From a virus: a stretch of 64,000 bases of DNA. The stretch is from positions 1-64,000 of IMG/VR virus record IMGVR_UViG_3300042988_001309. The stretch is one strand, 5' to 3'. Under the pieces are notes generated by a model. That model worked only from the letters and a program-made list of their open reading frames with translations. It searched no databases and had not been told where the DNA came from. The translations under genes and the position numbers were made by a program. This document shows, piece by piece, positions 37,407-63,931 of the stretch; the first letter of the stretch is position 1, and every line of letters starts with the position of its first letter.

Positions 37407-39061
37407 TGGGCTTTGGCCAGTCCCGCAAAGCACGTAGCTCGACCGTGCCGACCTCCACCCAACGTCCCAGCCCGTACCCGGTCATGCCCGGCCGCGCGGG
37501 CCAGCCCTACCGCGACTCCTGGGACATGAACCGGGCCGTCGACTACGGCCTCAACAGGTCCATCTGGGTGTACCGGGCCATCAACGCCATCGCCACCAAC
37601 CAGGCCCGCCTGCCCATGGTGGCCCGCAAGGGCGACTGGATCGCCGGGCCCGAGCTGCGCGTCGGCGCCACCCGCGACATTCTCAAGCTCCTCAACTACC
37701 AGGCCAACCCCAACGAGCACGCCACGGCGATCTTCCGCAAGCGGCTCACCCAGATCCTGCTGCTCAACCGCCAGGGCGTCATGATCGAGATCATCCGCGA
37801 CCGGGCCGGACGGCCGCTCGCGCTCTACATCCTGCCCCCGGGCTACACCCACCCGATCCCCGACGAGCGCACCTTCGTGTCGGGCTTCCGGGTCTGGTTC
37901 CCCGGCAAGAGCTTCGTGGACCTCCCGCCCGAGAACGTCATCTGGATCAGGGAACCGCACCCCACCGACCCCTACCTGGGCATCACCCCGCTGGAGGCGG
38001 CCGGAATCAACGTCGAGATGGACTACTACAGCCGTCTCTACAACCGGAACTTCCTGGCCAACGACATGCGCCCCGGCGGCATCTTGGTGCTCAAGGGCCA
38101 CATGGACGACGCGGATGCCGACGAGCTGCGCCGCCGGTTCTCCGGCTACGGGCCCGGCTACGCCGGTGCTGGGCGCCTCACCGCCATCGAGTCCGACCAG
38201 GGCGCCGACTTCGTCGACACCGGCGCTGCCCCGCGCGACGGCCACTACCTCCAGCTCGACCGGCTCACCCGCGAGTCGATCCTGCTGGCCTTCGGCGTGC
38301 CCGAGTCGATCGCCGGGAACGCCAGCGGCCGCACCTTCGCCAACGCCGATGCCGAGAAGGAAATCTTCTGGCAAGAGACGATGCTCCCGCACCTCGACAT
38401 GATCGCCCGAGGCTTCGACCGGCTCATCGACGACGACCCCGAGCACTTCGCCAGCTACGACTTCACCTCGGTGCCGATCCTGGAGCGCTACAAGCGCGAG
38501 GCGGCCGCCGCCCTCAAGGGCGAGCACGATGCCGGGCTCATCAGTGTGGACGAGTACCGGGAAGGCACTGGACGCAAGGCCGTGGGCCACAGCAAGCTCT
38601 ACATCGGTCAGGGCCAGACCGCCGTCATCGACGTGGCCAAGCCCTTCCAACCGCTGGAGGACCCCGCCGCTGGCGCCGGTGGCGAGGACCCGATGGCGGG
38701 CCTGGGCGCCCCCGCTGAACCCTTCGGAGCACCGGACTCCGCTGGTGCCGGGGAACTGCCAGGGTCGCCCTCCGCGTCGTTGCCCGGCGACGGGGGGGAC
38801 CCCATGGGCCCCACCCCCCAGCCCGAGCAGGACCCCGCCGGGGCCGATGCGCCGCCGTCATCGCCGGACCCCTACTGGTCCCAGGTGGCGACCGAGGCCG
38901 CCAACCCGGCCCCCGGCACGCCCGAGTGGTGGGCCGCCTACGACTCGATGTTTGAGCGCGACGAGGCCAAGAGCTTGGAGCCCATCCCGGTGCGCCAGCT
39001 CAAGGCCGCGCCCGTGCTCCCCGCCCCGAGGGAGGATCTGTGGACGACGCTGCCTGGGTAG
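37406..39061 (+). CDS. Portal protein (HK97-like)
   Basis: WVYRAINAIA, LLNYQANP, YLGITPLEAA, N..F.N...PGGIL, ILLAFGVP, VDEYR; Pro/Gly-rich tail. Confidence 0.92.
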   Translation: MGFGQSRKARSSTVPTSTQRPSPYPVMPGRAGQPYRDSWDMNRAVDYGLNRSIWVYRAINAIATNQARLPMVARKGDWIAGPELRVGATRDILKLLNYQANPNEHATAIFRKRLTQILLLNRQGVMIEIIRDRAGRPLALYILPPGYTHPIPDERTFVSGFRVWFPGKSFVDLPPENVIWIREPHPTDPYLGITPLEAAGINVEMDYYSRLYNRNFLANDMRPGGILVLKGHMDDADADELRRRFSGYGPGYAGAGRLTAIESDQGADFVDTGAAPRDGHYLQLDRLTRESILLAFGVPESIAGNASGRTFANADAEKEIFWQETMLPHLDMIARGFDRLIDDDPEHFASYDFTSVPILERYKREAAAALKGEHDAGLISVDEYREGTGRKAVGHSKLYIGQGQTAVIDVAKPFQPLEDPAAGAGGEDPMAGLGAPAEPFGAPDSAGAGELPGSPSASLPGDGGDPMGPTPQPEQDPAGADAPPSSPDPYWSQVATEAANPAPGTPEWWAAYDSMFERDEAKSLEPIPVRQLKAAPVLPAPREDLWTTLPG

Positions 39062-42000
39062 AGGACTGGGAACGGCGAGCCCAGCTCTATGAGGCGTCGC
39101 TCGCCAAGATCATCCGGGCCCATCTGACCCGCCAAGAGCGCGTCGTCATCGAGAAGCTCGGTGGCGCCAAGACCCGCCAGCGCTACGACCGTCACCTGGA
39201 GGCCAAGGCCCGGTTCGGCAACTCCGGCACGGCTCAGCTCACCCCGGCCCGCCTGGCCAGCTTGATGGCCTCTGCCGCTGTGCCCGGCCGCCCCGGCGCC
39301 GCGGCGCGAGCCACCCTCACCCGGTTTGGCGTGAACTGGCAGACCGGCAAGCCCCTCGCCGGTGGCGCCCCCTCGACGCCCGCCCCGAGCGCCCCGAGCG
39401 CACCGAACACCCCGAGCGTGCCCTCGGCACCGAGCGGCCCGCCGCCATCGCCGCTCAAGATGGTCACCACGCTGATGGGCAACTTCGCGCCCGGCACGCC
39501 GCCCTCCCCGTTGGGGAATGGCGTGATCCCGAACGCCCCCCAGTCGGTCCACAACAACGCCGACATCGCTGCCAAGGCCACCGGCTACGCGCCCGGCACC
39601 AACGGCTACGACCTCGCCTACTACGCCTACCTCGACGCGGCCATGGACCATGCCCGAGGCCTGTTCAAGGTCGACCCCACCACCCATGACTTCACCGCCT
39701 CCGAACTGGCCGTCCTCGACGCGGTCGCCACCCACGCCGTCCAGAACCGCATCGCCGCCGGTGCACCATCGCTGGCGATGATCTCCCGCAACCACTTCCC
39801 CCATGCGTTCCCGTTGGCGCCGACGAGCGCCAACCCCAACCCGCCGCTCAATGCCCCCAACACCCCGAGTGCTCCCGCCGCGCCGACGCCGCCCCCAGTG
39901 CCGTCATCGCCCACGCCGCTGGCCAACCCCGGCACGCCGACCATCGTGTTCCAGAACCCGCTGCCCATCGAGCTGCCCGGCGCGATCTATGCCAACGCCA
40001 CCAACTACTTCGGGGCCAACCTCATCAACGCCTCGCCGCCCGTGGGTGCCGCGAACCCCTATCGGGCCTTCCCGAGCCAGATGGCCTATGCCACCTACGT
40101 GGTCGGCGCCATCGAGTCGATCCAGCGCAACGGCTTCCAGGTCGATCCGGCCACCGGCGACTACGACCCGGCCGACTTCGCCAAGTTCGACGCCGACGGG
40201 GCTCACGCCACGTTCACCTACTACAAGTTCGGCACCCCGCCGCCGCTCATGGTGTCGGCCTCGCTGTGGCCGACCGGCGCCCACAGCCCCGGCGTCTCGA
40301 TCACCACCACCGGCGTTGCGGTGGGTGCCCCGTCATCGCCCCCGCCACCCCCGCCGGTACTCATGGTCCCCTCGCCGATCGGCATGGTCGCCGCGGGCTC
40401 CCCGGTCTCCCCGCTGCTCGGTGGTGGCCAGCTCCCGGCGATGCCCCAGTCCATCCATGACGCCGCCAACCGTCGAGCGTTGAGCGTCGGTCTCTCTCCT
40501 GGCTTCCAGCCCGGCACCAACGGCTACGACCTCGCCTACTACGCCTACATCGACGCCGTGTACGTCCAGGCGTCCCCGATCATGGGCCAGTCCCAGGTCC
40601 ACCTCGACCCCAACACCGGGGACTTCACCCCCGCCGACCTGGTGCTGCTCGACAACGTCGCCTCCAGCGTGGTGGCCAGCACCATGATTGCCGGAGTCCC
40701 CAGCTCCACCATGGTCCAGCGGGGCAACATCCCCGCCAACTTCGCCAACGGTGCCACCCCCTCGCTCAACGCCCCCAACACCCCGAGCCCGTCATCGGGC
40801 GCCGGTGTACCCCAGGGCCCCTCGATCTCCGCCACGGTCGGCACCCCGACCCCCGCCTTCGGTGGTCCTCCGACCCCTCCGGCCGGGCCGATGCCGTACC
40901 CCGACATCCACGATGTCCCCGACCTCCCCGACCCGCCGGACACCACCCCGGTCCCCGACGACCAGATCGTGCCCACCGTGTCCGGGCTCGACGAGCTGGT
41001 GGCCATGGGCCCGATCCCGCGGGCCAAGTCGCTGGCTGCCACCGTGCAGGCCCACCGGATGCGGATGCGGGCCTGGATCGGTGGCGACCCGATGCGCCAG
41101 GACCTGGCCGACGCCGCCGCCATGTGGATCGGCGACTACCAGCTCCCCATGCGCGAGTACCAGGAGATCCGCTCGTCGGCCGACTACCTGGCCAAGAAAC
41201 CCCGGGGCATGAAGGGCGGCCGCCTGGCCATGCGCCACGCCGCCACGTTGATGGCCGCCGCGGCCACCGGGCCCGTCATCCCCCGCATGTACCGGGGGAT
41301 CACCGTGACCTCCAGCGACCTGACCAACATGACCAAGCCGGGCTACCGCTTCACCGGCTCCCTCGACGCCTACTCGCTCAACCGGGACCGGGCGCTGGCG
41401 TTCGGGAACCTGCGCTCCACCAGCGGCTACGGCGGTGGCAACAACCTGGTGATCATCGAGATCGACGGCGGCCACGGCGTGCCGGTCAGCCCCTTGTCGC
41501 ACGCCACCGGCGCGGTGAGCTACCTCGACGCCGAGGAGATCCTGTCGTCGGGTGTGTGGGAGACCGTGTCGTCCTCGACCGCGTCCGAGACCCCGATGAC
41601 CATGGTGCGCGACGGCATGACCCCCGGATCGAGCCCTCGGACGGTCACCACCATCCGGGTCCGCCAGATCGTGCGCGGCTACGACCCGGTCACCGGCGAC
41701 GAGATCCCCGTCATTGCCCCCGCTGCCGCCACCAAGGCCGCCCGGCGCGACTACCCCGAGATCATTCCGCACGAACCGATGTACCCGAAACCCAGCGACT
41801 TCACCCCCGACCAGGAGGCGATGAACCTGCTGGTGTGGGTGGACGACGGCATCGAGCTGCCCGAGGTCAAGGGCATCCACCTGCCCGGCATCTTCGACGT
41901 GGCTGCGTTCGCCAAGCGACTCATCGACGACGCCCTCGACTGGCTCAAGCTCATGTACGGCGACTGGGGGAGCGCCACGGCCCGTCATCTCGGCGCCGCC

Positions 42001-44598
42001 GACTGGAACCCCCGCGACCCCGCCGTGGTGCAGGCCATCGAGAACCAGGCCGAGCGGATGCGCGGCGTGGCCGAGACCACCTACAAGCTCATCGAACAGC
42101 GCATCGCCGAGGCCGAGGCCGAGGACCTCCCGATGCCCGACATCGTCGACCGGGTCGCCGCCGACTTCGCCCGCCAGCGCGAGACCCGTGCCGAGACGAT
42201 CGCGGTGACCGAGGTCTCCGCGGCGGCCAACACCGCCAGCTTCCTGGCCGCCAACCAGATCCCTGGCGCCACGCTCACCAAGACGTGGTGGACGATGCAG
42301 GACGAGCGGGTCCGCCCCGCCCACCGCCACGCCCATGGCCAGGTGGCCGACGTGATGGAGCCCTTCGTCGTCGGTGGCGTGCCGATGATGTTCCCCCACG
42401 ACCCGTCCGCCCCGCTGCACCTGATCATCAACTGCCGGTGCCGGATCATCTGGAAGCCGGTGTACGTGATGACCGGAGCGACCGCTCCCAACCCGGCGCT
42501 GGCCAAGGCGTGGTCCAGCCGTCATGGCCAGTCCAAGGCCCGCTTCGGCAACCGGGGCGGGGCTCAGCTCACCCCGGTGGCCCTTGCCCGGCTCCTGGCC
42601 TCGGCGGCCACCCCCGGCAAGCCCGGCGCCGCCGCCCGCGCCACCCTCACCCGGTTCGGGGCCCGTGTCCCCGCCCCGGCGCCGGTGCCGACCCCGGGAG
42701 GCTCGCTCGACGCCGTCAAGGCCCGCATCGCCGCTCTCCACGCCTCCGGGCCCCAGGCTTCGTGGTTCGGGGCGCAACGGCTGCGCAACCAGATCGACCC
42801 CAACGACCCGGCCAGCCGGGAACGAGCCGTGCAGGCCACCATCGACGTGATGCTGGGCCGAGGCCAACTCGACTACGACCGGATCATGACCGACGACGGC
42901 CTCAACGCCATCCGGGACCTCATCGACAAGCGCCTGGCCGGACAACCGCCCAAGGGCCGCATCGGCGCGATCGTCGAGGAGACCTTGAACCGGCGCATGG
43001 GCGCCGCGCTGCGCGACGTGGACCCCGACGAGGTCGCCTCGATGATGGCCAGCCGCTACCTGCCCACCCAGGGCGACTGGGACGACAAGGCCATCCGCCA
43101 GCGCGACCGTGACTACGCCGCCGCGGCTGCCCGTCATGTCCTGGCCGACTACCTGACCCGCACCACGTCGAACTGGCCGCCCGCTCCGGCCGGGATGGAC
43201 GACACCCGCCGGGACCTGATCCGCGACTCGATGACCGCAGGCCTGCGCGGCACCAACGAGCCCGGCATCGCCGCCGTGCTCGCCCAGGCCCCCAGCCCCC
43301 GGGCCATGGCCAACGAGGCCGAGATCAACGCCATCGGCTCCGCCATCATCGACGCCGCCCTGTCCGACAAGGTCACCGACCAGGCCGCCCTCGACGCCGC
43401 CTACGACGCCGCCTCGACGGCCCACCACGCCTCGATGCGAGCCCTGGCCGTCCACGACGACGCCTACGCCACCTCGGCCGCCGCTGCCGTCATCGCCTCG
43501 TCCAACTCGATGGGGCTCCCCGACCCGCCGGTGACCGGCTGGGTGGCCATCGACACCAAGGTGGACAAGCGCCGAGGGGCGATCACCCTCATCTGGGGCA
43601 ACGGTGGGGACACCTTGTCGATGCGGATCACCGCCCACGGCAACATCCACGCCCGCTACACCTCCGCCGGTGGGGTCGAGCGTGACGCCAGCCCGGCCAT
43701 CTCCGACCAGGCCGCCTACGACGCCCTCGCCCAGGCCTCGGCCGACCTCCAGACCATGCGGGCCGCCTACGACGCCAGGGGCATGTACGGCATCCGCCGG
43801 GTCGAGCGCGACGCCATCTTCGACGCCCTCGGCCAGATCCGCCCGTTCGCCAAGGGCCGCACCCCCCTCGTCGCCACCGACAACACGCCCATCGCCCACA
43901 ACTTCGGCAGGGGCCACGGCGCCCCGCCGCCGGACCAGACGGTGATCGACGCCCTCACCTGGGCCACCGACTACTACCCGAGCGACTGGGTCGACGCCGG
44001 TGACGCCAACGGCCCGGTGTACGGGATGGGCTTCGACCGGCGCGGGTTCTTCACCCAGGTCCCCGACCCGAGCGGCAAGATGGTGCCCGTCATCATCGCC
44101 AGTCGGTCGGACCCGAGCCCGCTGGTGGAAGGTGGCGGCACCCCCGAGTTCAACGAGACCATGGCCCATGAGTACGGGCACTACATGGAGATGGTGATCC
44201 CCGGCCTGACCGACGCCGAATACGCCCTGTGGTATCGCCGCACCAACGGCGGCGAGGGGGCCATCTCGATGAACGAGGCCGAGGGGGTCCCCGCTCAACT
44301 CCAGGCCATGGGCATGGGCTATGGGCCCGAGGAGATCACCGCCCCCGACGAGTTCCTCTACGCCTACATGGGCAAGATTTACCCTGGCGGCACCCAGACG
44401 AACCGGGAGATGTTCACCATGGCGATCGAGTCGCTCGTCGGTGGCCGCGGCGGCAAGCTCCCCGACGGCTCCCGGCCCAAGAGCTTCGTCCAGGGCGACC
44501 GGGACATGGCCAACTGGCTCGTCGGCCTGCTGGCCACGCTCAACCTCGGACCGGGCAACACCGCCACCACCTCGACCACTGCCGGAGCGCCGTCATGA
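39040..44598 (+). CDS. Polyvalent MuF (gp7-like) minor head protein with ADP-ribosyltransferase-like and zincin domains
   Basis: MuF motifs RAETIAVTE, KTW...D.RVRPAH, INCRC (~41870-42460); YRG..S..EE (41290-41540); HEYGH (44167). Confidence 0.85.
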   Translation: MDDAAWVEDWERRAQLYEASLAKIIRAHLTRQERVVIEKLGGAKTRQRYDRHLEAKARFGNSGTAQLTPARLASLMASAAVPGRPGAAARATLTRFGVNWQTGKPLAGGAPSTPAPSAPSAPNTPSVPSAPSGPPPSPLKMVTTLMGNFAPGTPPSPLGNGVIPNAPQSVHNNADIAAKATGYAPGTNGYDLAYYAYLDAAMDHARGLFKVDPTTHDFTASELAVLDAVATHAVQNRIAAGAPSLAMISRNHFPHAFPLAPTSANPNPPLNAPNTPSAPAAPTPPPVPSSPTPLANPGTPTIVFQNPLPIELPGAIYANATNYFGANLINASPPVGAANPYRAFPSQMAYATYVVGAIESIQRNGFQVDPATGDYDPADFAKFDADGAHATFTYYKFGTPPPLMVSASLWPTGAHSPGVSITTTGVAVGAPSSPPPPPPVLMVPSPIGMVAAGSPVSPLLGGGQLPAMPQSIHDAANRRALSVGLSPGFQPGTNGYDLAYYAYIDAVYVQASPIMGQSQVHLDPNTGDFTPADLVLLDNVASSVVASTMIAGVPSSTMVQRGNIPANFANGATPSLNAPNTPSPSSGAGVPQGPSISATVGTPTPAFGGPPTPPAGPMPYPDIHDVPDLPDPPDTTPVPDDQIVPTVSGLDELVAMGPIPRAKSLAATVQAHRMRMRAWIGGDPMRQDLADAAAMWIGDYQLPMREYQEIRSSADYLAKKPRGMKGGRLAMRHAATLMAAAATGPVIPRMYRGITVTSSDLTNMTKPGYRFTGSLDAYSLNRDRALAFGNLRSTSGYGGGNNLVIIEIDGGHGVPVSPLSHATGAVSYLDAEEILSSGVWETVSSSTASETPMTMVRDGMTPGSSPRTVTTIRVRQIVRGYDPVTGDEIPVIAPAAATKAARRDYPEIIPHEPMYPKPSDFTPDQEAMNLLVWVDDGIELPEVKGIHLPGIFDVAAFAKRLIDDALDWLKLMYGDWGSATARHLGAADWNPRDPAVVQAIENQAERMRGVAETTYKLIEQRIAEAEAEDLPMPDIVDRVAADFARQRETRAETIAVTEVSAAANTASFLAANQIPGATLTKTWWTMQDERVRPAHRHAHGQVADVMEPFVVGGVPMMFPHDPSAPLHLIINCRCRIIWKPVYVMTGATAPNPALAKAWSSRHGQSKARFGNRGGAQLTPVALARLLASAATPGKPGAAARATLTRFGARVPAPAPVPTPGGSLDAVKARIAALHASGPQASWFGAQRLRNQIDPNDPASRERAVQATIDVMLGRGQLDYDRIMTDDGLNAIRDLIDKRLAGQPPKGRIGAIVEETLNRRMGAALRDVDPDEVASMMASRYLPTQGDWDDKAIRQRDRDYAAAAARHVLADYLTRTTSNWPPAPAGMDDTRRDLIRDSMTAGLRGTNEPGIAAVLAQAPSPRAMANEAEINAIGSAIIDAALSDKVTDQAALDAAYDAASTAHHASMRALAVHDDAYATSAAAAVIASSNSMGLPDPPVTGWVAIDTKVDKRRGAITLIWGNGGDTLSMRITAHGNIHARYTSAGGVERDASPAISDQAAYDALAQASADLQTMRAAYDARGMYGIRRVERDAIFDALGQIRPFAKGRTPLVATDNTPIAHNFGRGHGAPPPDQTVIDALTWATDYYPSDWVDAGDANGPVYGMGFDRRGFFTQVPDPSGKMVPVIIASRSDPSPLVEGGGTPEFNETMAHEYGHYMEMVIPGLTDAEYALWYRRTNGGEGAISMNEAEGVPAQLQAMGMGYGPEEITAPDEFLYAYMGKIYPGGTQTNREMFTMAIESLVGGRGGKLPDGSRPKSFVQGDRDMANWLVGLLATLNLGPGNTATTSTTAGAPS

Positions 44599-44900: not shown

Positions 44901-44942
44901 CCGTCACCAGGTCAACCCGGCATCATCGGCAACGATGGTGGC

Positions 44943-47900
44943 ATGGCGTTCGTGTGGAGATGGGCCCCCGGTGAAGTGAAGGCCACGGTGGCAGGGACGG
45001 CCAACCGTTTCGGCAACCTCGGTGGCTCCCAGATCAACGCCGCCAAACTCGTCTCGCTGGTGACCCGAGCCGCTGTGCCCGGCCGCCCCGGCGCCGCGGC
45101 GCGAGCCACCCTCACCCGGTTCGGCTACGACGCCGCTGGCAACCCACTGTCGGGGCAAGGGCCCACGGTCGCCCAGATGGCCGCGGCGGCCAACGTCCCC
45201 GGCCCCAACGTCCCCAACGCCCCGAGCCCGTCATCGCCCAACGCCCCTGGTGCGCCCTCGACCCCGAACGCACCCAGCGCCCCCTCTGCGCCGTTGCCGC
45301 CCCCCCAGCCGACGGCGCCGAACGCCCCCGGCCCGGTGTCGTCCTCCACGCCTGGGCCGGGGGCACCTTCCGCCGCTGCGCTGCCAGCGATGCCCTCGGT
45401 GCCCGGCTCGGTGGCCGGTGCGAACACGGTGCCCGTGCTCGACGCCAACGGCTCACCCCGCCCCGTCATGACGGTCGACAAGGTCGACGACTTCCCGACC
45501 TCCAACGCCATCGTCGACTCCTCGATCATCCTGTCCGACGCCCTCACCGAGGTGGTGACCACCATGGGTGGCACCTACGGCGACGACACCCCCGAGAACT
45601 ACACGGCGGTCAACGCCTTCGTGACCGAGGCCGCCCAGACCCTGGTGGACCTCGACCTGGCCGCCAACTTCGACGCCGGGCTCGGCGCCAACCACCGCCC
45701 CTGGCCCACGGCCGACCAGCTCTACACCGCCGTCACCCGTGGCTACCAGGCGGCCTGGCAGTCGGTGGCCAAGCTCCACGGCGACACCCCGAGCGACCAG
45801 AGCACGACCGACGAGGTGCTCACCCCCGGGCCGGGATGGCACTCGCCGATGACCGGCCGGGACTACCCCGGGATGCCCGCCGACGTGCCCCTGCCCGACT
45901 ACTTCGACAACGTCACCATGGGGCCCGAGCCCACCTTGCCGAGCGGCTCCCCGCGGCCCCCGCTGCGCCTCCCCGATCCCAATCTGCCCCAACGGCCGAC
46001 CGTCATCGTCAACCAGGACGGCCGCCTGTTCAGCCTCATGGCCTCGATCTCCTCGGCGTTCCGCACCACCTACGGCAAGGACTCCCCGGAGCGCCGCATC
46101 GCCATCGGCGCGTTCCTGGCCGAGACCTCCCAGAGCGCCACCGACTTCGGCTTCAAGCCCACGGGCTGGGGCTCGTTCGCCAACGGCAAGAGCCCGACCG
46201 ACGAACAGCTCATGGTCATCGCCGACCGGGGCCGCCGCTCGGCGTTCCAGTCGGTCGCCGACTTCCACGACGCCCAGCTCGCCCCCGCGGCCGTCACCGA
46301 GCGCGACGACATCTATCTGCCCGACCGGGGCGAGCAGACGATCAAGGTCAACTCGCTCACCGACGTGGTCGACGACGCCACGCTGCCCTACGTTGAGATC
46401 CCGCCGAGCTGGGGCAACGGCGGCCCGGGAGCCGCCAAGAGGCCCTCCGACGCCGAGCTGGCGTGGAAGTTCTCCCTCGACTACGGCGCCCCCGGAACGG
46501 TCGCTCAGCGCCTCGCCTACAACACCTGGGCCGTGTGGGCCTCCAAGTGGCGACGCAACGACCCCGCCAAGTACCGGGTCCTGGCGATGTCGACGGCCGA
46601 GGCCCAAGGCATCGAGGAGAACGCCCGGTTCGACATGGTGACCAGGGTCCTGGCCCACCCCTCGACCGAGGCCATCGCCGTGCCCGGCTCGCGTTCGGTG
46701 CAAGACACCGAGCACCGCGAGTGGGTCGAGCTGCCCGCTGGCGCCGGAGCCCCCGACCCCAGGGCCAACCCGGGCAAGACCTACACCGCCGCCGGACTGC
46801 GCGATGGGTCGGACCCCTACGTCCCCCGCCCGGTCGGGCTGGCCCGCTCGGGGAGCGCGTTCGACAAGCTCATCGACAACCCCATCGACGCCGAGTGGAT
46901 GACCAGCCACGGCTATCCACCCGACCCGGTGCTCCTCGCCGTGGCCCAGTCGGCGTGGGCCGATGCGGTGAACGAGCGGACCTTCTACGCCGAGCGCAGG
47001 GGCTACTCCGTCATCCCCTCGATCAACACCATCGTCCTCGACGCCGAGACCGACATCGCTCGACGCCTGGCCGACGCCCAGTGGTCGCGCACCCAGGACC
47101 CGCCGGTGCCGATCAACCTCGGCTGGGGAGACGGTGTCAAGGACGACGACTACTCGGTGCTCACCGACCCGTACCTGTTCGGGCCCAACGGCCGCACCGG
47201 CGCCAAGAACCTGTGGGACCTCAACTTCGACGCCTGGGAGAAGATGGGCGGGGACCGTAGCTCCGTCATCGCCCGGAGCACCCAGCTCATCGCCGACCAC
47301 AAGTACGCGCCCGACGACGTGACCCCGCTGCTGCGCACCGACTTCCGGCGCGGCTCACCGGCGATCGACATCCCCCACGACTACCTCGACGCCTACCTCA
47401 AGACCGGCGGCATGGACGTGGCCCGCCGGGACCGCTCGGTGCTCGCCCAGAACGACCAGTTCGCCATGCTCTCGTTCACCCCCGACTCGGCCTATGCCCA
47501 GTGGATTGCCGTGGACATCGCCAAGCGCCGCGTCGACGGCGAGGCGACCCGTCATGACGACATGATCCAGGCCCGCATCGACGACGCCACGGCCCAGGAC
47601 CTGATCGCCTTCGCCCAGGGGCTCGCCGGTGTCGATGTCAGCGACCCGACCGCCCCCCAGTACCCGGCCGGGCGCGACACCTACATCGTGGCCCTGGCCG
47701 CCATGGGCAACCAGTTCGACCAGCTCCCCAAGATCATCTCCGGCAACGACATCGACGCCGCCAAGGCCGCCGCCGTGACCGCCGTCAAGGCCGCCTCGAT
47801 GGCGCAGTTGCCTGGCCTGGAAGCCGCCCTCGCCTTCGCCAAGTCCGGCGACCCCAACGACGACTACGGCTGGGCCGACCTCGACGCCGAGTACCAGGCG

Positions 47901-55326: not shown

Positions 55327-55374
55327 GCCCGCCCATCAGAGTCATCGAGGTTGACCTGGTGCGATGATGGCGTC

Positions 55375-55665
55375 ATGCGGATCACCCTCGGGGCAGGACT
55401 GGAAGTGAAGGCCGGACCGCAAGGCGGGGCCGACCGCAACCGTGGGGGCGCCGAGCAACTGCGCCGCTACTGGACGGTCGGGCCCGGCGCGGCCCGTATC
55501 CGCTGGGGCACTCCCGGCGACTGGACGCGCTGCGTCCGCCAGCTCACCGAGCACATGGGCCCTCGCGCCCGTGGCTACTGCCAGCTCCGTCATATCGAGG
55601 CCACCGGCGTCGGGACCGGCTCCAAGCTGAACCCCGGCCGCCGCAAGGGCCGCAAGCGCGCGTGA
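55375..55665 (+). CDS. Small head-module protein (Cys/His motif)
   Basis: LRRYW..G.GAARIRWGTPGDWTRCVRQL...GYCQLRH..ATG, a motif I associate with actinophage head-morphogenesis proteins. Confidence 0.6.
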   Translation: MRITLGAGLEVKAGPQGGADRNRGGAEQLRRYWTVGPGAARIRWGTPGDWTRCVRQLTEHMGPRARGYCQLRHIEATGVGTGSKLNPGRRKGRKRA

Positions 55666-55666
55666 C

Positions 55667-58600
55667 ATGACCGCCGACCAGGGCCGCATCTTGGCCATGG
55701 CGATCCTGCTGGAGGGCGCGATCCGAGACGCTCCTGCCCTCCCCGGCAAGGGTCCGCTCGCCTCGATCGCCGAGGTCTACAACCGCCTGCTCGCCGACCC
55801 CTCCGATCGCTACGGCGGCCCGGCGTTGATCGAGTTCGTGCTCGACGCCGCCCGCCGTCATGGCGCTGCGGTGCCCGGCGGTGAGGGCAAGTCGATCGAG
55901 CAGAGGTTCGGCAACCGGGGCGGCAAGCTCACCCCCGACGGCCTGCTGCGCCTCACCTCCACCGCCCTGCTCCCCAACGACCGAGGCCGAGCGGCACGGG
56001 CCACCCTCACCCGCTTCACCGGCCGGGGCAAGCTCGACCTCCCCGACGGTGATCGCCGCCAGGTCGACCACGCCCAAGCCTCGACGCTGTTCAACCGTGA
56101 GCGCCAGCGCAACCTGTTCGGCGCCCAGGCGGGCCATCTGTCGGCCGTGGAGATCGGCAAGCGGTTCACCCTGCCCGAGTCGTTCAAGGCCCGCGCCATC
56201 GGGGACCTGATCGCCCAGGACCCCTCCCGCGGCACCGAGTACGGCGGGACCGGCCGGTATCAAGACGGCTTCTACAGCGGCAACTGGAGCGTCGTGCTCG
56301 CCAACGCCCAGCGGCTCGACCCGAGCCTGGACGAGCGCTCCCCGGTCGGTGACGTGCTCGCCGCCTCCCAGCCGCCCGCCATCGGCTTCAACAACCCCGA
56401 ACAGGACCCCGCCTCGATCGCGCTGGCCGCCCGCCTCGCTGCCTCCGCCGACCCCGACGCCGAGCGCCGGGCATGGGCCACCGAGCAGGGCTGGACCGCC
56501 GAGGCCGGATACGTCGCCGCCCTCCAGGGCTGGTGGATCAACGACAGTTCCTCCCCGTGGGCCCAAGCGATGACGCTGGCCGCCGCTCAACGTCTCGGCG
56601 ACCCGAGCGACATGGCCCGCTCGCTCAGTCACCTCCAGGCCAAGGCCGCCGAGTGGGAGCCCGGCACGCTGGTCGGCCAGGACATCCTCGACTCCGCCGA
56701 GGGCCCGGCGCTGCGCCAGGCCGTCATGGCCATCTATGACCACACCCAGGCCCGCCTCGCCGACTACGGGCTCCGGCCCGACGACCTGATCGAGCTGTAC
56801 CGAGGGATCGGCCCCGACAACGAGATCCGCACCGGCGACACCGCCATCGCCGACCCGCTCACGTCGTGGTCGTCGAACCCCGCCGTGGCGTTGTCGTTCA
56901 CCAAGGTCCGCCGCGGCGGATCGGTGCTCAGCGGCTCGGTGCCCGCCCGCTCGATCCTCATGCTCATCACCGACGCCACCGGCTACGGCGGGCTCCACTA
57001 CGCGAAGTGGGAATGGCACCTCGACTCCCAAGAGGAGTTCGTGACCCTCGGTGGCCCGGTGAACGTGACGGTGACCAGGACCCAGGACCCGGTCGGGCTC
57101 CTGCACGGGTCGACCCCGGTCGAGTCGGTGATCGCCCGAGGTCCCGGCTTCAAGTCGGCCCGGCGCGAGGTGTACGTGGACGGCGACAACTGGATGCACG
57201 TCGTGCGCTCCGCCATGCCGTCATCGGGCATGAAGGCCCGGTTCGGCAACGCCGGGACGGCCAAGCTGTCCGCCGCTCGCCTCGCCAGCTTGATGGAGCG
57301 AGCCCCGACGAGCCCCCAGGCGCGAGCCACGCTCACCCGGTTCGGGATCGACTGGCATCGCCCGGCCGCTCCGGCCGCTCCGGCCAAGAACCCCGCCGTG
57401 CCGGAGCGCCTTGTCCTCGGCGTGCCCGGCTGGGACCAACAGTTCACCGCCCACCCCGAGGCGATCGAGCCGGTAATGCTGGCGCTGGAGGCCGAGGACC
57501 GCCTGCGCGCCTACGCCGCCAACGTCGGCACGGTCACCGACCGCTGGTCGGGCCGCTCCGAGGACTATCGGACCACCATCTTCAACAACGCCCAGTCGTT
57601 GCAGGCCGTCATGAAAGCGACGGTCAACGACCCGGACAACATGCCGGTCGATGTGGATTGGACCTCCGAGACCGTCGACATCGCCCACCAGACATGGGTC
57701 GACGCTCGCCCGTTCACCGACTGGTCCGTTCATGGCCCCGAGGACCGTTCGGCGTGGCTGCTCGCCGCGGCCAAGCGCCGGGTCTCGGGCGAGGACTGGG
57801 GCGTGGCGGTGACCAACGTGGCCCGCCGCCTGGCCGACGGCACGGCCCCCGAGGACACCTACGACCCCAACGACCAAGACGCCAACCAGCGGGCCGGGGT
57901 GACGAGGTACGACCCGTTCCTCGATCTCCAGCACGGCTGGGCGCTCTACAACGGTCTGCGCGACCCGGCGGTGACGACCCCCTCGCCCACCCCGCTGTAT
58001 CGGGGCATGTCGTTCACCCCTGACGGCAAGGCCATCGCCGTCGGGGACCGGATCGACATCGCCGCCGCCTCGTTCTCCCTGTCGAGCGACGTGGCCGACT
58101 CGTTCGCCCTCGACCGCAACTTCGACGAGGAATCTCAGGTCGCCACCGATGACGAATCCCTCGCCGCCACCGATCGGATGCGAGCCGAGCACTACCCCAA
58201 CGCGTCGCGCGTCGTGTACGTCGCCGCCCCCGGCACCCCGGGCTTCGATGCCACCAGCTTCTCGGTGCGCGGCGAGCAGGAGTGGCTCGTTGGCGGCACG
58301 TTCACCGTGACCGCCATCGACGAGGGCGACCGCGTCCGCTACATCCACATCGCCCCCGCTGCCACCAAGGCCGCACGCCGGTGGCGGATGGACCCCACCG
58401 ACTTGCCCGCCGATCTGGACTGGCCGGTGCGGCCGTCATCGGGGATGAAGGCCCGTTTCGGCAACGCCCACTCCGCCAAGCTCACCCCGGCCCGCCTGGC
58501 CAGCCTGCTGTCGCGTGCGGCCACCAGCCCCCAGGCGCGAGCCACGCTCACCCGGTTCGGCGTGGATTGGCGCACCGGCGCCATCGCCAACCCACCGGCC

Positions 58601-60544
58601 CCCCGGGTGCCTCGCCGCACGCTTCCCCGTCCGGCCCGTGACGGCAAGTGGCACCTCGTCGGCAACGTCGATGTCCGGGCCCTGCCCACCGACCCGGCCG
58701 ACACCTGGCGGGTGTCGTGTGAGCGTTGTGGCGGCACCGGCTACGTCACCAGCGGCAACGCCGCCCACGGCACGATCTGCTACCGCTGTGGCAGTGGGGG
58801 GGACGAGCCCGCCGTGCCCGTCAACACCGCCACCTCGCCGCTGCCCCCCAAGCTGCTCACCTGGGACGGGGTCGAGCTGCTCGACCAGCACCGCGCCCAA
58901 GTCGCCGCCGACGAGCAGGCCCGCAACGAGGCCCGCAAGGCCGAGTTCGTCCGCAAGCTCACCGTGTTCGACAACGCCGTCATGGCCGACCCCGAGTTCG
59001 GGTCTCGCATGGCCCGCCTGCGCTACCTCGACGACATGGCCCAAGGGGCAACGACCGAGCCCCCATCGGCATCACTGGCCATCGTGCGCCACGACGCCGT
59101 GGCCGACGCCGACGTGGGCAACACGTTCGACCTGACCCCGCACCGCGCCGAGCTGGCCCGAGCGTTCGACGCCGCCGAGGCCTACACCGCCCGGGTCTAC
59201 CCCGAGCTGGCCGCCGAGGTCGGCATCGGGCCGGAACGCTCCGGCCGAGCCCCGAGCCCCAAACAGGTGTCGTACCTGCGCAACCTGCTGCGCCGCTCGG
59301 GCATCAACCCCGCCGAGGCCGACACGGTCGACGACTCGACCATCGCATCGGCGCTCATCGACGCGCTCAACGAGGGCGACACCCGCCGGGCCCGCTACCT
59401 CCTCGACGCCTCAGCCCCGCCGTCATCGGAGCTGGGTCCAGTGCTCGACGCCCTGCTCGCCCGCCACCAGTTCGACCCCGACGCCGAGGAGGCTCCGCTC
59501 CCGGGGCTCAACCCTGACCGCGTGGTCGGCGACATCGGCCGCTCGCTTCTCGACCAGGGCTTCGCGCTACCCGACCAGCTCGCCGCCCGGCCAGCGAACG
59601 ATCCGGTGACCTCGATCGGGCTCGACGGCGCACTGTTCTCCGGCATCCGCGACGAGGGCGAGGCGTCCACGTTCGGGGAACTGCTCACCGCCTGGGCGCG
59701 CTTGCGCGAGCAACGAGCCGCCGACGAGGTCTGGCAGGGCACGCGGGACATCCTCGACGAGCAGGACGCCCTGGCCGACGCGGCCCGGCGCACCGGGGCG
59801 CCTTACCCCGAGGCCGAGATCGCCCGCCTCGGGGATCGACTGCGCGCTCGGGAGGCCGAGCTGACTGCCCAGGCCGAGGCCAAGTACCGCATCGGGCCCA
59901 GCCTGGGTTACGCCGTCATGATGCAAGACGCCTGGAGCGAGACCACCGCCGGTGACCGTTCGGCGGCCATGATCACCGCCGCCGCCAACCAGTTCCCGAA
60001 CCCGACGATGACCGAGGGGCTTCAAGCGTTCCGGCAGTTCCAACCCGGCTTGGCCGCATCTGCCGAGACGATCGTCAACGGCCCAGAGGCCCCGGCGATC
60101 GGCGCGTTCATGGCGACCACCTACGCCGCCACCCAACGGTTCCTCGCCGACAACGGCTTCCCCCCGGGCTCGACGGTGACGCTGTATCGAGGGGTCTCGA
60201 CCGGCGCCGACCAGGTGGGTGGGGAGGTGTTGGTCAACCCGCTCTCATCGTTCACCACCGACCGCTCCATCGCCGAACGGTTCTCGCGTGTCGACTGGGG
60301 CCTGGAGGGCCAAGGCGGGGTGATCACCGCCCAGGTGCCGGTCGAGCGGATCTTCTCGATCGCCGGGATCGGCCCCGGCCACCTCGCCAGCCGGGAAGTG
60401 GTGGTGCTCGGGGGACGGCTCCCGGCATCGGCCGATCTGACCTTCCGGCCGACCTACAAGGGCCTGGGCGGGCCGTCATACATCGACGCCGACAGCGACT
60501 GGCTGCGCGTGGCGGCCCGGTTGATCGCCTCCGCCAGCGCCTGA
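55667..60544 (+). CDS. 1625-aa polyprotein with three ADP-ribosyltransferase-like domains
   Basis: LYRG..SWS..QEE (56798-57040); LYRG..SFS..EQE (57998-58285); LYRG..SFT..SRE (60185-60400); CxxCGGTG zinc finger. Confidence 0.8.
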   Translation: MTADQGRILAMAILLEGAIRDAPALPGKGPLASIAEVYNRLLADPSDRYGGPALIEFVLDAARRHGAAVPGGEGKSIEQRFGNRGGKLTPDGLLRLTSTALLPNDRGRAARATLTRFTGRGKLDLPDGDRRQVDHAQASTLFNRERQRNLFGAQAGHLSAVEIGKRFTLPESFKARAIGDLIAQDPSRGTEYGGTGRYQDGFYSGNWSVVLANAQRLDPSLDERSPVGDVLAASQPPAIGFNNPEQDPASIALAARLAASADPDAERRAWATEQGWTAEAGYVAALQGWWINDSSSPWAQAMTLAAAQRLGDPSDMARSLSHLQAKAAEWEPGTLVGQDILDSAEGPALRQAVMAIYDHTQARLADYGLRPDDLIELYRGIGPDNEIRTGDTAIADPLTSWSSNPAVALSFTKVRRGGSVLSGSVPARSILMLITDATGYGGLHYAKWEWHLDSQEEFVTLGGPVNVTVTRTQDPVGLLHGSTPVESVIARGPGFKSARREVYVDGDNWMHVVRSAMPSSGMKARFGNAGTAKLSAARLASLMERAPTSPQARATLTRFGIDWHRPAAPAAPAKNPAVPERLVLGVPGWDQQFTAHPEAIEPVMLALEAEDRLRAYAANVGTVTDRWSGRSEDYRTTIFNNAQSLQAVMKATVNDPDNMPVDVDWTSETVDIAHQTWVDARPFTDWSVHGPEDRSAWLLAAAKRRVSGEDWGVAVTNVARRLADGTAPEDTYDPNDQDANQRAGVTRYDPFLDLQHGWALYNGLRDPAVTTPSPTPLYRGMSFTPDGKAIAVGDRIDIAAASFSLSSDVADSFALDRNFDEESQVATDDESLAATDRMRAEHYPNASRVVYVAAPGTPGFDATSFSVRGEQEWLVGGTFTVTAIDEGDRVRYIHIAPAATKAARRWRMDPTDLPADLDWPVRPSSGMKARFGNAHSAKLTPARLASLLSRAATSPQARATLTRFGVDWRTGAIANPPAPRVPRRTLPRPARDGKWHLVGNVDVRALPTDPADTWRVSCERCGGTGYVTSGNAAHGTICYRCGSGGDEPAVPVNTATSPLPPKLLTWDGVELLDQHRAQVAADEQARNEARKAEFVRKLTVFDNAVMADPEFGSRMARLRYLDDMAQGATTEPPSASLAIVRHDAVADADVGNTFDLTPHRAELARAFDAAEAYTARVYPELAAEVGIGPERSGRAPSPKQVSYLRNLLRRSGINPAEADTVDDSTIASALIDALNEGDTRRARYLLDASAPPSSELGPVLDALLARHQFDPDAEEAPLPGLNPDRVVGDIGRSLLDQGFALPDQLAARPANDPVTSIGLDGALFSGIRDEGEASTFGELLTAWARLREQRAADEVWQGTRDILDEQDALADAARRTGAPYPEAEIARLGDRLRAREAELTAQAEAKYRIGPSLGYAVMMQDAWSETTAGDRSAAMITAAANQFPNPTMTEGLQAFRQFQPGLAASAETIVNGPEAPAIGAFMATTYAATQRFLADNGFPPGSTVTLYRGVSTGADQVGGEVLVNPLSSFTTDRSIAERFSRVDWGLEGQGGVITAQVPVERIFSIAGIGPGHLASREVVVLGGRLPASADLTFRPTYKGLGGPSYIDADSDWLRVAARLIASASA

Positions 60545-60772
60545 CCATCCCCCCTCACCGCCAGCGTGGCCACCACGCTTGGTAGCGTGAAAGGATCAGC
60601 ACACCTGGTAACGATCAGGCAGAGTGGTCGTGGCTCGGTCGTCCGGGCACGCTGCACGCTCCGATCCGCTTCCTCGGGCTCGCCGTCGGGAGCGTCACCT
60701 TTGACGCCCCGGTGCCCGATCCGATTCCGATCCGCCCCAAACAGCTCGCGCTGTTCGACGACGAGGTGAGCG

Positions 60773-63700
60773 ATGACCCTGGAGTTCAAGAGCGCCCAGA
60801 GCCTGACCGCCGTAGACGCAAACCAGGGGATCGCTGAGGCGATCGTCTCGGTCACCAACATCGTCGACCACGTCGGCGACAAGATCATCCCCGGCGCCTA
60901 CGCCGAGACCCTCAAGACCCGTCGCCCCAAGGTCTGCTGGAACCACAAGTGGGACAACACCGTGGGCAAGGTGCTGGAGATCGTCGAGTTGATGCCCGGC
61001 GATCCACGCCTGCCCGACAAGCTCAAGACGATCGGGGCCGGGGCGCTCAAGGTCAAGGTGCAGTTCAACCTCAACTCCACCCGAGGCCGCGATGCCTGGG
61101 AGGACGTGAAGTTCTACGGCGAGGAGGGCGAGTGGTCGATCGGCTACGACGTGAACGGCCCGACGGGCAAGAGCCGCAACGTCGGGGGAGTGCGGGAACT
61201 GCACCAGATCAACCTGTTCGAAGTCAGCCCCGTACCGTTCGGCGCCGCCCCGCTCACCGGAACCCTCGCCCTCAAGAGCCTCGGCGCACCGAGCGCACCT
61301 GAGGCCGTCATGGGCCGGGTCCCGTTCGACAACGCCGTGAAGGCCTACGGCGCCGGTGCCCAGCTCTCCGCCGGTGGACGAGCCCGCCTCACCGCACGGG
61401 CCGCCCTGCCCGGTCGCGAGGGGGCCGCGGCGCGAGCGACGCTCACCCGGTTCCTCGGCGGCGGCAAGCCCGAGGCGCCACGCCCGGCGGCTCAGCCGAC
61501 CCATTTCATGCCCCCGGACGCCCCGACGTTTCGCTTCCCCGAGAGCATCGACAACCTGCTCGCCGCCGGACCAGACGCCCTGTCGAGGGCCGCGTGGGCG
61601 CCCGTGGAATGGGACGAGACCGAGGACCCCTACTCCTACGAGAGCCGGTACATCATCGGCGGGCCCGACTCCGTCGTGACGCTCACCCCGGACCCCGGTC
61701 AGGGGCGGGCCTTCCTGTCAATCCCCGGCAACGACAGCCTGGAGATCAGGACCGTCGGCGATTTCGAGAAGGCCTACACGGCCATCGACCGCGGCTTCGT
61801 CGGCAAGCTGGAACTGCGGGATCTCTCGGCTCGCAACATCGCCGTCCTCATCGAGGACAACATCCGCGAGTCCGTCAATGCCGATGGGCGCCGGTCCGCC
61901 ACGGTCGACGGCGCCCCGGGGTTCGGCCTGGTGTTCACCCCCGACGGCCTGAACGTGGTCACTCCTGACGGGGCCGTGAAGCGGGTCAATGAGGTCGACG
62001 ACCTGCGCTTCGTCCTCGGCAAGCCCCCCTATCCGCACACCAGCCTCACCGGCTCCACCCCCAAGCCGAGGGGGACGACCTACGTGGTCCCGGCGGGGCG
62101 CATCCCCCGGAACCTGGGGGCGATGACGACCTCCGAACAGTACGAGGACATGGATCGCTACAACGCCTTCGTGGCGGCCGGTGGCGAGGGGCGCACCTGG
62201 ATTCCCACCGTCCGCGACTACCCCGACCCTGGAGGTCACGTCATGAACTGGCCGAAATCCGCCGAGCCCGTCATGGACCCGCTCGTCGCCGACTACCTCG
62301 ATCTGACCGGCAAGGCGTGGACCCGGGGCGGGAAGCTGTCCGACGCGGGTCGAGCCAAGCTGGTGGCACGCGCCGCTGTCCCCGGCAAGGAAGGCGCCGC
62401 CGCCCGCGCGACGTTGACCCGCTACCTCGGCGGCGACAAAGAGGCGGCCGGACGGATGATCCAAGCGCACCGTTCCGGCGACAAGCTGCCCGACGCCGCG
62501 GCGACGGCCAAGATGCCGTCGCGTCGCGAACGGCGCCTCATCGAGGCCGCCACCAACGGTGACAAGGAAGCGGTAGCCGCGTTGCGCGACATGGGTCTCG
62601 AAACCGACGGCCTGCCCGGCTACGGCTTCCAGCGCCCCGAGATCGCCGAAGGACTCGCCAGCGTGGAGCGCGCCGGGTTCGCCCCGTTCGTCCGTCAATG
62701 GAGTCGGGCGACCGGCAAACCGCAAACGGCCAGCGAGATTTACGGCATCCCCCGAGAGTTTCGCGACCCGCCCCCTGGCTATTCGACGAGGCAGGAATGG
62801 ACCGATGCTGTCGGCAGGGGTGTCCGCGGCGGCGACGGCACGGCGGCCAAGCCGTTCCTGGTGAGCGGTGATCTCCCCCCGGAAGAACGGCAACGACTGT
62901 TCAACGCCCTCGCCGACTCGTCCGCGGACGGGGTGCGTGGCGTCGCGATCGGGGACCCCGAACTTGGTGTCTCCGACCCGAAACTCACCGAACGTGCCCG
63001 CGCTCGGGCGGGGAATGACCTGCTGTCGTCGGCGTTCACCACCGCGAAACTCGACGAGTTCCACGCCGACTTCGACGGACGCAAAGACCTGTCCGACGCG
63101 ATTCAATCCGGCACCGGCAGTCAACGCGACCCGTACATCACCGACAACCCCGAAGCGGCCGCCATGGCGATCGGCAAAGGCAGGTTCGTCGAGCTGCAAC
63201 AGCCCGACGAACTGGCGACCATGATCGACGTGATCGCCGACTGGGTGAACGAGGCCAAGGCCAAGGGTGAGAAGGCCCCGACCTACGACCTGTGCCGGGC
63301 CATGGTCAAGGGCACCAACCTGTTCTGCATCGAGTCCAAGGGCATCCCCCGCATCAAGATGCCCCAGCTCTCTGGCATCCCGACGCCGGGCTCTCCGGCC
63401 GACTCGTTGCCCAAGCGGCCCAACGGCGAGGTCGACCTCGTCCCGTTGTTCCTCCAGCACCTGGCGTCCAAGGGCATCCGCTCCCAGCGCACCTCGGTGA
63501 AGGCCAGCCACCTGCGCGCCAGCCAGAACGAGCTGAACGGCGGCAAGGTGTCCGGCATGGTCCAGTCCATGGCCGCGGGCAAGCTCCCGCCGGGCTCGAT
63601 CATCTCGACGACCGACAACTACGTGGTCGACGGGCATCACCGCTGGGCGGCCACCATCGGCACCTCGATCAAACAGGGCGACGATCTCATGGTCGACACC

Positions 63701-63931
63701 GACCAGATCGACGCCCCGATCCTCCAGGTGCTCGCCCTGGCCAACCTCTACGCCGTGGAGATGGGCATCCCGCCCGCCGGGGCCGATGCCCCCGTGCCCC
63801 AGGCCAAGCGCTTCCGCCGTCATGGGTCGCTGCGCAAGAGCCGCGACTCCGCTCCGCCGTGCATCGGATGCGGGGACGAGCCCGACCCGATCGCCCAGTA
63901 CGTGGCCCTCAAGGCCAACCGCCCCCACTGA
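60773..63931 (+). CDS. HK97-type prohead protease fused to cargo regions and a C-terminal ParB/Srx-like domain
   Basis: VDHVGDKIIPGAY, WNH, WSIGY, LFEVSPVPFGA; C-terminal LRASQ...YVVDGHHRWAA. Confidence 0.85.
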   Translation: MTLEFKSAQSLTAVDANQGIAEAIVSVTNIVDHVGDKIIPGAYAETLKTRRPKVCWNHKWDNTVGKVLEIVELMPGDPRLPDKLKTIGAGALKVKVQFNLNSTRGRDAWEDVKFYGEEGEWSIGYDVNGPTGKSRNVGGVRELHQINLFEVSPVPFGAAPLTGTLALKSLGAPSAPEAVMGRVPFDNAVKAYGAGAQLSAGGRARLTARAALPGREGAAARATLTRFLGGGKPEAPRPAAQPTHFMPPDAPTFRFPESIDNLLAAGPDALSRAAWAPVEWDETEDPYSYESRYIIGGPDSVVTLTPDPGQGRAFLSIPGNDSLEIRTVGDFEKAYTAIDRGFVGKLELRDLSARNIAVLIEDNIRESVNADGRRSATVDGAPGFGLVFTPDGLNVVTPDGAVKRVNEVDDLRFVLGKPPYPHTSLTGSTPKPRGTTYVVPAGRIPRNLGAMTTSEQYEDMDRYNAFVAAGGEGRTWIPTVRDYPDPGGHVMNWPKSAEPVMDPLVADYLDLTGKAWTRGGKLSDAGRAKLVARAAVPGKEGAAARATLTRYLGGDKEAAGRMIQAHRSGDKLPDAAATAKMPSRRERRLIEAATNGDKEAVAALRDMGLETDGLPGYGFQRPEIAEGLASVERAGFAPFVRQWSRATGKPQTASEIYGIPREFRDPPPGYSTRQEWTDAVGRGVRGGDGTAAKPFLVSGDLPPEERQRLFNALADSSADGVRGVAIGDPELGVSDPKLTERARARAGNDLLSSAFTTAKLDEFHADFDGRKDLSDAIQSGTGSQRDPYITDNPEAAAMAIGKGRFVELQQPDELATMIDVIADWVNEAKAKGEKAPTYDLCRAMVKGTNLFCIESKGIPRIKMPQLSGIPTPGSPADSLPKRPNGEVDLVPLFLQHLASKGIRSQRTSVKASHLRASQNELNGGKVSGMVQSMAAGKLPPGSIISTTDNYVVDGHHRWAATIGTSIKQGDDLMVDTDQIDAPILQVLALANLYAVEMGIPPAGADAPVPQAKRFRRHGSLRKSRDSAPPCIGCGDEPDPIAQYVALKANRPH

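Follow-up and report, generated by a model that had tools for sequence, protein, structure and literature searches.

Candidate lysine cleavage sites for an HK97-type prohead protease at the module edges of giant polyvalent proteins of an uncultivated phage

The window analyzed here comprises 64,000 nucleotides (positions 1 to 64,000) of the IMG/VR virus record IMGVR_UViG_3300042988_001309. Its head-assembly module encodes an HK97-type prohead protease and four giant proteins, one of them carrying this protease, in which candidate Lys sites for cleavage were analyzed. These Lys sites exist, their positions are non-random and conserved, and the protease is identified. The best reading of the sequence is that the giant proteins are polyvalent cargo which the prohead protease processes as the head matures; we consider this probable without being confident of it. 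It is likewise rather probable that the polyproteins are cut before a leader of 45 amino acids (aa), of which they carry eight copies. The four giant proteins would probably be cut into separate injected effectors, but the chance that all 17 sites listed in the initial annotation of the window are used is much lower. Cleavage itself, its timing, the role of the leader and the ejection of the products into the host are what we infer from the observations described below.

The protease domain proposed in the initial annotation is a genuine HK97-type Peptidase S78, which takes up the first 170 residues of the 1052-aa protein. It matches PF04586 with 48.2 bits (cut-off 21; E=1.8e-12) over residues 21-162 and phrog_80 with E=3.7e-25. 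In an alignment with gp4, the HK97 protease, and three actinophage proteases, H58 and S122 occupy invariant columns and match H65 and S114, the catalytic pair of gp4. K168, likewise invariant, forms the end of the conserved core (LALK↓SLGA in this phage, AAMK↓SVDG in HK97, VSVK↓SAQ in Gordonia phages and LEVK↓A in the IMG/VR relatives; arrows mark candidate scissile bonds, with P1 before and P1' after the bond). A K↓S at the core end is found in this phage, in the related protein P0011 (LSVK↓SGE), in Gordonia phage ChisanaKitsune and in HK97 gp4. The protease domain is indeed bracketed by the sites EFK-S at 60788 and ALK-S at 61274, which correspond to K6↓S and K168↓SLGA on either side of the S78 core.

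The major capsid protein (MCP) is encoded outside the window, and the same kind of site, which the initial annotation had proposed to look for there, occurs in it as K97↓SLGA and K139↓SLGG; K147 is followed by Asp. The MCP is a close homologue of HK97 gp5 with a delta domain. Its alignment with gp5 begins at residue 164, and 147 residues lie ahead of the K147 site; capsid proteins of this kind carry an N-terminal extension of approximately 100-150 aa before the conserved RR..IRDL at the start of the N-arm or P-domain. K97 (K↓SLG) and K147 are invariant across nine MCPs of only 33-37% identity. K147 lies within five alignment columns of HK97 K103↓S104, the established capsid maturation cleavage site (PMC10275583), and is separated from RR..IRDL by 27-29 residues, compared to 26 for HK97 K103. 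The residue after the K147 equivalent is Ser in seven relatives and Asp in this phage and two others. Thus the P1 Lys is constant, and a small P1' residue is a preference and not the rule that had been assumed, the more so as one relative has K-P and K-N before its leaders. The Lys sites of the MCP and of the protease edge are likely to be real cuts.

The window covers the initial 64 kb of one 94,093-bp contig with a G+C content of 70%, whose + strand carries almost every gene. The head-assembly module has the order portal, MuF protein, 2180-aa protein, small open reading frames (ORFs), 1625-aa protein, protease protein, scaffold-like ORF and MCP. Its features and candidate sites, including those in modules resembling ADP-ribosyltransferases (ART), are as follows.

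37406..39061, + strand: portal protein, 551 aa (PF04860, E=3.6e-41); candidate site K522↓SLEPIP (codon 38969), at which a cut would take off a 29-aa C-terminal tail
39040..44598, + strand: MuF polyvalent protein, 1852 aa (PF04233 at residues 1046-1137; phrog_2662 match starting exactly at residue 944); first half with propeptide, K56↓leader 1, Pro-rich repeat region, K663↓ART-like module and K899↓45-aa Trp tail; second half with K944↓MuF core, K1166↓leader 2 and a helical region with an HEYGH zincin motif (44167-44181)
44943..51485, + strand: 2180-aa protein without known family; 13-aa propeptide ending in G-E-V-K13↓A, leader 3, Pro-rich linker and approximately 2000 aa of cargo
55351..55665, + strand: 104-aa ORF; N-terminal peptide of 20 aa with L-E-V-K20↓A at its end (codon 55408), the remainder being a 'WGTPGDxxRC' domain
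55667..60544, + strand: 1625-aa protein; three units of leader and ART-like module, DRAT (PF07357) at residues 1486-1584; candidate sites K75↓S, K496↓SARR, K523↓A, K901↓AARR, K928↓A and K1598↓G
60773..63931, + strand: protease polyvalent protein, 1052 aa; K6↓S, S78 protease core (60791-61276; H58, S122), K168↓SLGA, 22-aa spacer, K190↓leader 7, 300-aa module, K514↓leader 8, another module and a ParB-like region (DGHHRW, 63629-63646)
63942..64000 in the window (genome 63942-64997, extending beyond the window end), + strand: scaffold-like ORF, approximately 351 aa; candidate sites K↓SLPGG, E-T-K↓SLSA, E-A-K↓A and E-A-K↓S
genome 65186-66508, outside the window: MCP (phrog_10, E=4.5e-54; HK97 gp5 chains, E of approximately 1e-50)

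The 17 listed Lys sites were checked against these reading frames. Each coordinate points to the opening base of a Lys codon in the reading frame, and all flanking residues were given correctly; 16 of the 17 sites are located in the portal protein or the four giant proteins, and the site at 55408 belongs to the separate 104-aa ORF 55351-55665. The site EVK-G at 41869 does mark the edge of the MuF core, as K944 coincides with the start of the phrog_2662 match. K663↓SLAAT, upstream of the ART-like module of the MuF protein, had been overlooked. These proteins are Lys-poor, as had been stated (1.6-4.8% Lys, mean 2.6%), but the rest of the proteome is equally so (2.62%). Lys poverty is therefore an effect of the G+C content, and it was rejected as a special property of these proteins. 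Across the four giant proteins the dipeptide K-[ASG] is not enriched: it accounts for 54 of 177 Lys residues (0.305 versus 0.293 expected), and the corresponding frequency of R-[ASG] is 0.301. Therefore the dipeptide alone predicts nothing, and what is non-random is the position of the sites.

Position was assessed with edge windows that were set without reference to Lys. Eight of them comprised the 12 residues upstream of the invariant ARATLTR anchor of each leader, and two further windows were placed at the Pfam end of the S78 domain and at the start of the portal-MuF PHROG match. K-[ASG] is present in every one of these 10 windows, compared to 1.1 expected by random placement, and none of 200,000 permutations reached 10. 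The proposed enrichment at module edges is thus borne out. In two leaders the K-[AS] is out of register while RFGN stays fixed (K-SIEQ-RFGN and K-ATVAGTAN-RFGN, shifts of 4 and 8 residues). Such a shift is not expected for a structural residue and appears to fit a cut site better.

A sharper motif emerges as (hydrophobic)-E-x-K↓[S/A/G] together with K↓SL, and it is enriched in head proteins. The seven head proteins (8,052 aa) contain seven K-S-L, compared to a single one in the other 17,911 aa (p=0.0016). The seven occurrences are located in the portal tail, at K663, at the protease core end, twice in the scaffold-like ORF and twice in the MCP delta domain. In head proteins, 15 of 19 E-x-K have Ala, Ser or Gly as the next residue, versus 12 of 28 elsewhere, and the density of E-x-K-[ASG] is 1.86 per 1000 residues in head proteins versus 0.67 elsewhere (p=0.007). 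The giant proteins hold seven E-x-K-[ASG], among them K56, K13 and K75 directly before the three N-terminal-most leaders, K944 at the start of the MuF core and K6 at the protease N-terminus.

The motif was also searched for in relatives. Among cultured phages, the closest relatives are Gordonia myophages (genus Chidieberevirus), with approximately 45% protease identity; the comparison set consisted of eight IMG/VR actinophage contigs whose proteases are 45-49% identical. In these contigs the S78 protease forms one polypeptide with cargo-like modules and with a C-terminal region that is scaffold-like (L004-L010, ORFs at about 9900-12200). The cargo contains either two H-x-T-L motifs or a GGHxExxE...REWQEETG box, by which the modules look 2H-phosphoesterase-like and NUDIX-like. 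The linkers between the modules are poorly conserved except for a repeated hydrophobic-E-x-K↓[SA], which appears as LEVK↓A, LERK↓A, VELK↓A, VEHK↓S and VLEAK↓S. E-x-K is followed by Ala, Ser or Gly in 7/7, 8/8, 8/8 and 8/9 cases in the protease-scaffold fusions and in 3/3 to 4/6 cases in the MCPs; other ORFs of those loci contain hardly any such sites. The 'WGTPGDxxRC' domain, which forms the free-standing ORF 55351-55665 in this phage, is located inside the protease-scaffold fusion of relatives behind E-A-K↓A. The BLASTP alignment of this ORF with the protease fusion of L008 (E=2e-21, 55% identity) begins from EVKA/EAKA. As the domain aligns from exactly the Lys site, modules are thus exchanged at these sites. 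The scaffold-like ORF of this phage shows weak, collinear similarity to the C-terminal part of the relatives' protease fusions (E=0.017). The giant proteins encoded upstream of the relatives' proteases have no similarity to those of this phage and no internal repeats. The protease ORF of L011 (9950-13555, 1201 aa) contains a long insert just past the conserved KPKGVF, which begins with Cys (CADEATEILTERGW...) and looks like an intein within the protease core.

The leader is present in exactly eight copies in the 94-kb genome, all of them inside the four giant proteins:

39208..39330, + strand: leader copy 1 (ARFGN...ARATLTRFG)
42538-42660: leader copy 2
44982-45125: leader copy 3
55892-56017: leader copy 4
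57236-57346: leader copy 5
58451-58561: leader copy 6
61343-61453: leader copy 7
62315-62425: leader copy 8

An AlphaFold2 model built from the eight copies consists of a helix (residues 19-29), a turn and a second helix (34-45) with a predicted local distance difference test score (pLDDT) of approximately 90, whereas residues 1-8, which hold the K↓A, have a pLDDT below 50 and are predicted to be disordered. According to this model, a K↓A in a disordered segment before a folded hairpin would agree better with a cut site than with a structural residue. Downstream of each leader come a Pro/Ala-rich linker and the cargo. No consistent Lys-small site was found downstream of the leader in the eight copies; therefore a cut before the leader would leave tag, linker and effector as one product. 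This differs from the capsid-targeting sequence (CTS) of the T4 type, a short N-terminal tag that is removed at its C-terminal end, because the candidate site precedes the leader. The leader may act in the manner of a CTS without being one.

Leader 7 starts 22 residues after K168, directly behind the protease core. In HK97 gp4 the capsid-loading segment is reportedly the C-terminal part (Duda et al. 2013). An hhalign comparison of the leader profile with the C-terminal 61 aa of gp4 revealed no similarity, and the relation between the two is therefore positional only. A segment of gp4 suffices for encapsidation of GFP by HK97 (PMC11626933). Prediction of a complex of leader and MCP gave no support, a result that counts neither way. 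Judged by its position and the architecture of the giant proteins, the leader is most likely a capsid-loading tag.

Beyond this phage, a profile search of 1.84 billion representative proteins yielded leader homologues only in P0011 and P0012. The hits P0010 and P0013 were rejected as repeat-driven false hits. A word-indexed search recovered only the leader itself, and back-translated ARATLTRF patterns gave no match in IMG/VR, chance matches only in GTDB genomes and, among the matches listed, chance matches only in JGI metagenomes. P0011 combines a protease with two tandem leaders. P0012 is a metagenomic protein of 642 aa with a ParB-like domain (DGHHRW), L-D-A-K↓A, a leader and then a P-loop (GLPGSGKST) kinase-like domain that resembles zeta toxins. 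It appears to be an independent, second lineage using the leader with a Lys site.

The four ART-like modules share 17-28% identity, an invariant YRG and an invariant Lys just past the last conserved block. This terminal Lys is followed in each module by a Trp-containing tail of 27-45 aa:

41737-41871: Trp tail of the MuF protein, 45 aa
57155-57235: first Trp tail of the 1625-aa protein, 27 aa
58370-58450: second Trp tail of the 1625-aa protein, 27 aa
60461-60541: third Trp tail of the 1625-aa protein, 27 aa

Only the third unit of the 1625-aa protein matches DRAT (PF07357), with 25.4 bits at a cut-off of 25; the other three modules are recognized at the level of motifs (YRG / S-x-S / E). No homologues were found for the second ART unit, PDB sequence searches with three of the ART-like pieces returned nothing or spurious DARPin matches, and an AlphaFold2 model of the ART-like module and tail of the MuF protein, based on a four-row alignment, was unusable (mean pLDDT 42). 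The tails after the Lys share a D-x-D-x-W..V / P-S-S-G pattern (YVDGDNWMHVV, PADLDWPV, YIDADSDWLRV and LLVWVDDG), and the 29-aa portal tail after K522 (38972-39058) ends similarly in PREDLWTTLPG. The Trp-containing tails and the portal tail could be a docking or inhibitory element. Soon after its leader, the third unit of the 1625-aa protein also harbors a zinc-ribbon-like motif, CxxCGG...CxxCGSGG (58718-58800).

Based on these features the following course of events is proposed. Approximately 6,700 aa of cargo would be packaged in four proteins, one of which begins with the S78 protease. Within the procapsid, this enzyme would cut after Lys in exposed linkers, with a preference for hydrophobic-(E or small)-x-K↓S/A/G and tolerance of Asp. 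It would remove the delta domain of the MCP, free itself at K168↓SLG, trim short N-terminal propeptides at K13, K20, K56 and K75, and dissect the polyproteins into approximately 13 pieces. Eight of these would begin with the 45-aa helix-turn-helix leader, followed by the Pro-rich linker and the effector; the others would be the MuF core, one ART-like module and the short Trp-containing tails freed from the ART modules. The earlier statement that each effector begins with the shared leader would thus hold for only eight of the approximately 13 predicted products. The leader would load the cargo into the capsid, being positioned where HK97 gp4 has its capsid-targeting segment. A more far-reaching version, a true polyprotein strategy in which the tag was copied onto eight modules, approximately 13 products are cut in the capsid and removal of the 27-45-aa tails from four ART-like toxins amounts to a zymogen-like activation, is put forward as a tentative suggestion that we consider doubtful.

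The processing by the prohead protease that was proposed in the initial annotation is partly supported, namely by the identity of the protease, the type of site in the MCP, the conserved Lys at the core end and the linkers of the relatives, whereas the predictive power attributed to K-[ASG] did not hold. Several observations weigh against it. K-[ASG] occurs at chance frequency in the giant proteins, where 39 more such dipeptides had been left unlisted, and P1' is not constrained even at the best-supported MCP site (K147↓D). The strict E-x-K-[ASG] is confined to seven sites in the giant proteins, and the internal leader sites have no Glu at P3 (S-G-M-K↓A, G-Q-S-K↓A, N-A-V-K↓A and L-T-G-K↓A). 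The leaders are paralogues with 44-73% identity, so that the 10 edge events are not independent and the statistics are inflated. The giant proteins upstream of the relatives' proteases contain no E-x-K-[ASG] at all, so processing of cargo is not general in the clade. In P0011 the leaders are preceded by K-P and K-N, although a single K↓S at the edge of the protease would be enough in that protein.

Some of these points are also those to be expected if the polyproteins were packaged and ejected intact and the Lys-small pair were a functional or structural part, such as a DNA or capsid contact or a helix N-cap, rather than a scissile bond. As leaders and ART modules are paralogues, their Lys may simply be inherited and not repeatedly selected; K-P and K-N stand at the equivalent position of P0011, the giant proteins of the relatives do without the motif, and large virion proteins of the N4 virion RNA polymerase type are packaged unprocessed (PMC5512222). 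Intact ejection is nevertheless unlikely. The Lys changes register in two leaders while RFGN stays, and it is located in a segment predicted to be disordered. The same motif is found at the MCP delta-domain sites and at the C-terminal edge of the protease in many relatives, and the three N-terminal-most leaders have E-x-K↓[AS] behind peptides of 13-75 aa, which is a propeptide pattern.

Processing could also be due to another enzyme or take place at another time, through the zincin-like metallopeptidase suggested by HEYGH at the end of the MuF protein or through host proteases after ejection. The motif is present at 44167-44181, and metallopeptidase-mediated processing of polyvalent proteins has been predicted by Iyer et al. 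2017 (PMC5512222). The zincin assignment is one of motif only, with no Pfam match, and the motif is found in one of the four polyproteins; moreover, this explanation leaves the match to the delta-domain and protease-edge sites unaccounted for. It is considered improbable. A mere selection bias, by which some of the 54 K-[ASG] in 6,709 residues always lie near a boundary, would agree with the chance frequency of the dipeptide and the 39 unlisted sites but is very improbable, as it is already largely refuted by the occupation of 10/10 Lys-independent edge windows versus 1.1 expected and by the retention of the motif in unrelated relatives and in the MCP, the remaining doubt concerning non-independent paralogues only. 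Processing by the prohead protease thus remains the preferred reading.

The giant proteins are polyvalent in the sense that virion genes encode two or more effector domains per polypeptide: they include MuF, the S78 protease and four ART-like modules, one with a profile match and three recognized by motifs. MuF, protease and ART-like modules are all encoded between the portal and MCP genes. Hints of further hub domains are limited to the HEYGH and DGHHRW motifs and matches to phrog_33618 and phrog_2859, PHROGs of unknown function; zincin metallopeptidase and DdrB-type ParB domains gave no Pfam match in the polyvalent proteins. A megablast search of the region against GenBank phages returned no match. 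The start of the MuF ORF overlaps the end of the portal ORF by 22 nt (39040-39061) in a different frame. The first part of phrog_2662, a 'portal' profile of 717 positions, matches the portal protein and its last part the MuF core; therefore both are one fused protein in some relatives. The region of the MuF protein after leader 1 (39208-41028) is rich in AP(N/S)TPS-type repeats and repeatedly but weakly resembles the first 350 aa of the 2180-aa protein (44982-46000; 24-31% identity), which suggests that the two proteins have repeat modules in common. An ORF of 565 aa that is located beyond the window (genome 67783-69480) has a match to phrog_850, 'RNA-binding protein', with E=2.6e-45.

For the loading and activation of the huge polyvalent phage proteins, autoprocessing by an embedded metallopeptidase is the only published proposal. 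This genome, about a fifth of which is taken by the cargo, offers an alternative at the level of residues: an S78 protease with a readable motif, a reiterated tag and approximately 18 predicted scissile bonds. If true, it would widen the known specificity and substrate range of S78 proteases and offer a modular system of natural origin, combining a tag with cleavage, by which HK97-type shells could be filled with proteins.

Among known systems, gp4/gp5 of HK97 have the same protease family with the conserved His and Ser, a homologous MCP whose N-terminus is a delta domain, a P1 Lys followed by 'SLG', a Lys at the end of the protease core and a post-core region that is used for capsid targeting in HK97. 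In contrast to HK97, the protease described here opens a cargo polyprotein of 1052 aa, and candidate sites are located in four giant proteins. T4-like prohead proteases belong to a different family and differ in specificity, with Glu at P1. In T4 (IPI-III, the ADP-ribosyltransferase Alt and gp21) and in SPN3US/phiKZ, effectors including an ART are loaded by a tag, cut and ejected with the DNA, and the CTS/Alt proteins of T4 and the ejection proteins of SPN3US are cut by their prohead proteases (PMC7411985). The T4 tag has 10-20 aa and is removed, whereas the 45-aa leader follows the candidate cut and seems to be retained on the cargo. A further difference is that the protease here is of the HK97 type with Lys at P1 and that several tagged modules are present per polypeptide.

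Polyvalent proteins (Iyer, Burroughs, Anand, de Souza and Aravind 2017) and MuF polymorphic toxins (Jamet et al. 2017) likewise combine multiple effectors in the late or head gene region, and are built from hub domains, namely MuF, ART, zincin-like peptidase and ParB-like (PMC5512222); the proteins described here share MuF and, by profile in one module, ART, and may share the other two, for which they have candidate motifs. The published work proposes processing by an embedded metallopeptidase and has neither a reiterated leader nor Lys sites, whereas the module edges in this phage match prohead-protease sites; the zincin, whose HEYGH motif is found in one of the four proteins, may contribute to processing. 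In the Dar system of P1, very large anti-host proteins such as DarB are sent to the capsid interior by a transferable N-terminal signal (PMC9024508). The proteins are unrelated to those of this phage and carry one signal each, and their dissection into modules has not been reported. Packaged and protease-processed ejection proteins are a known theme, of which an S78-type polyprotein version with Lys sites would be a new form.

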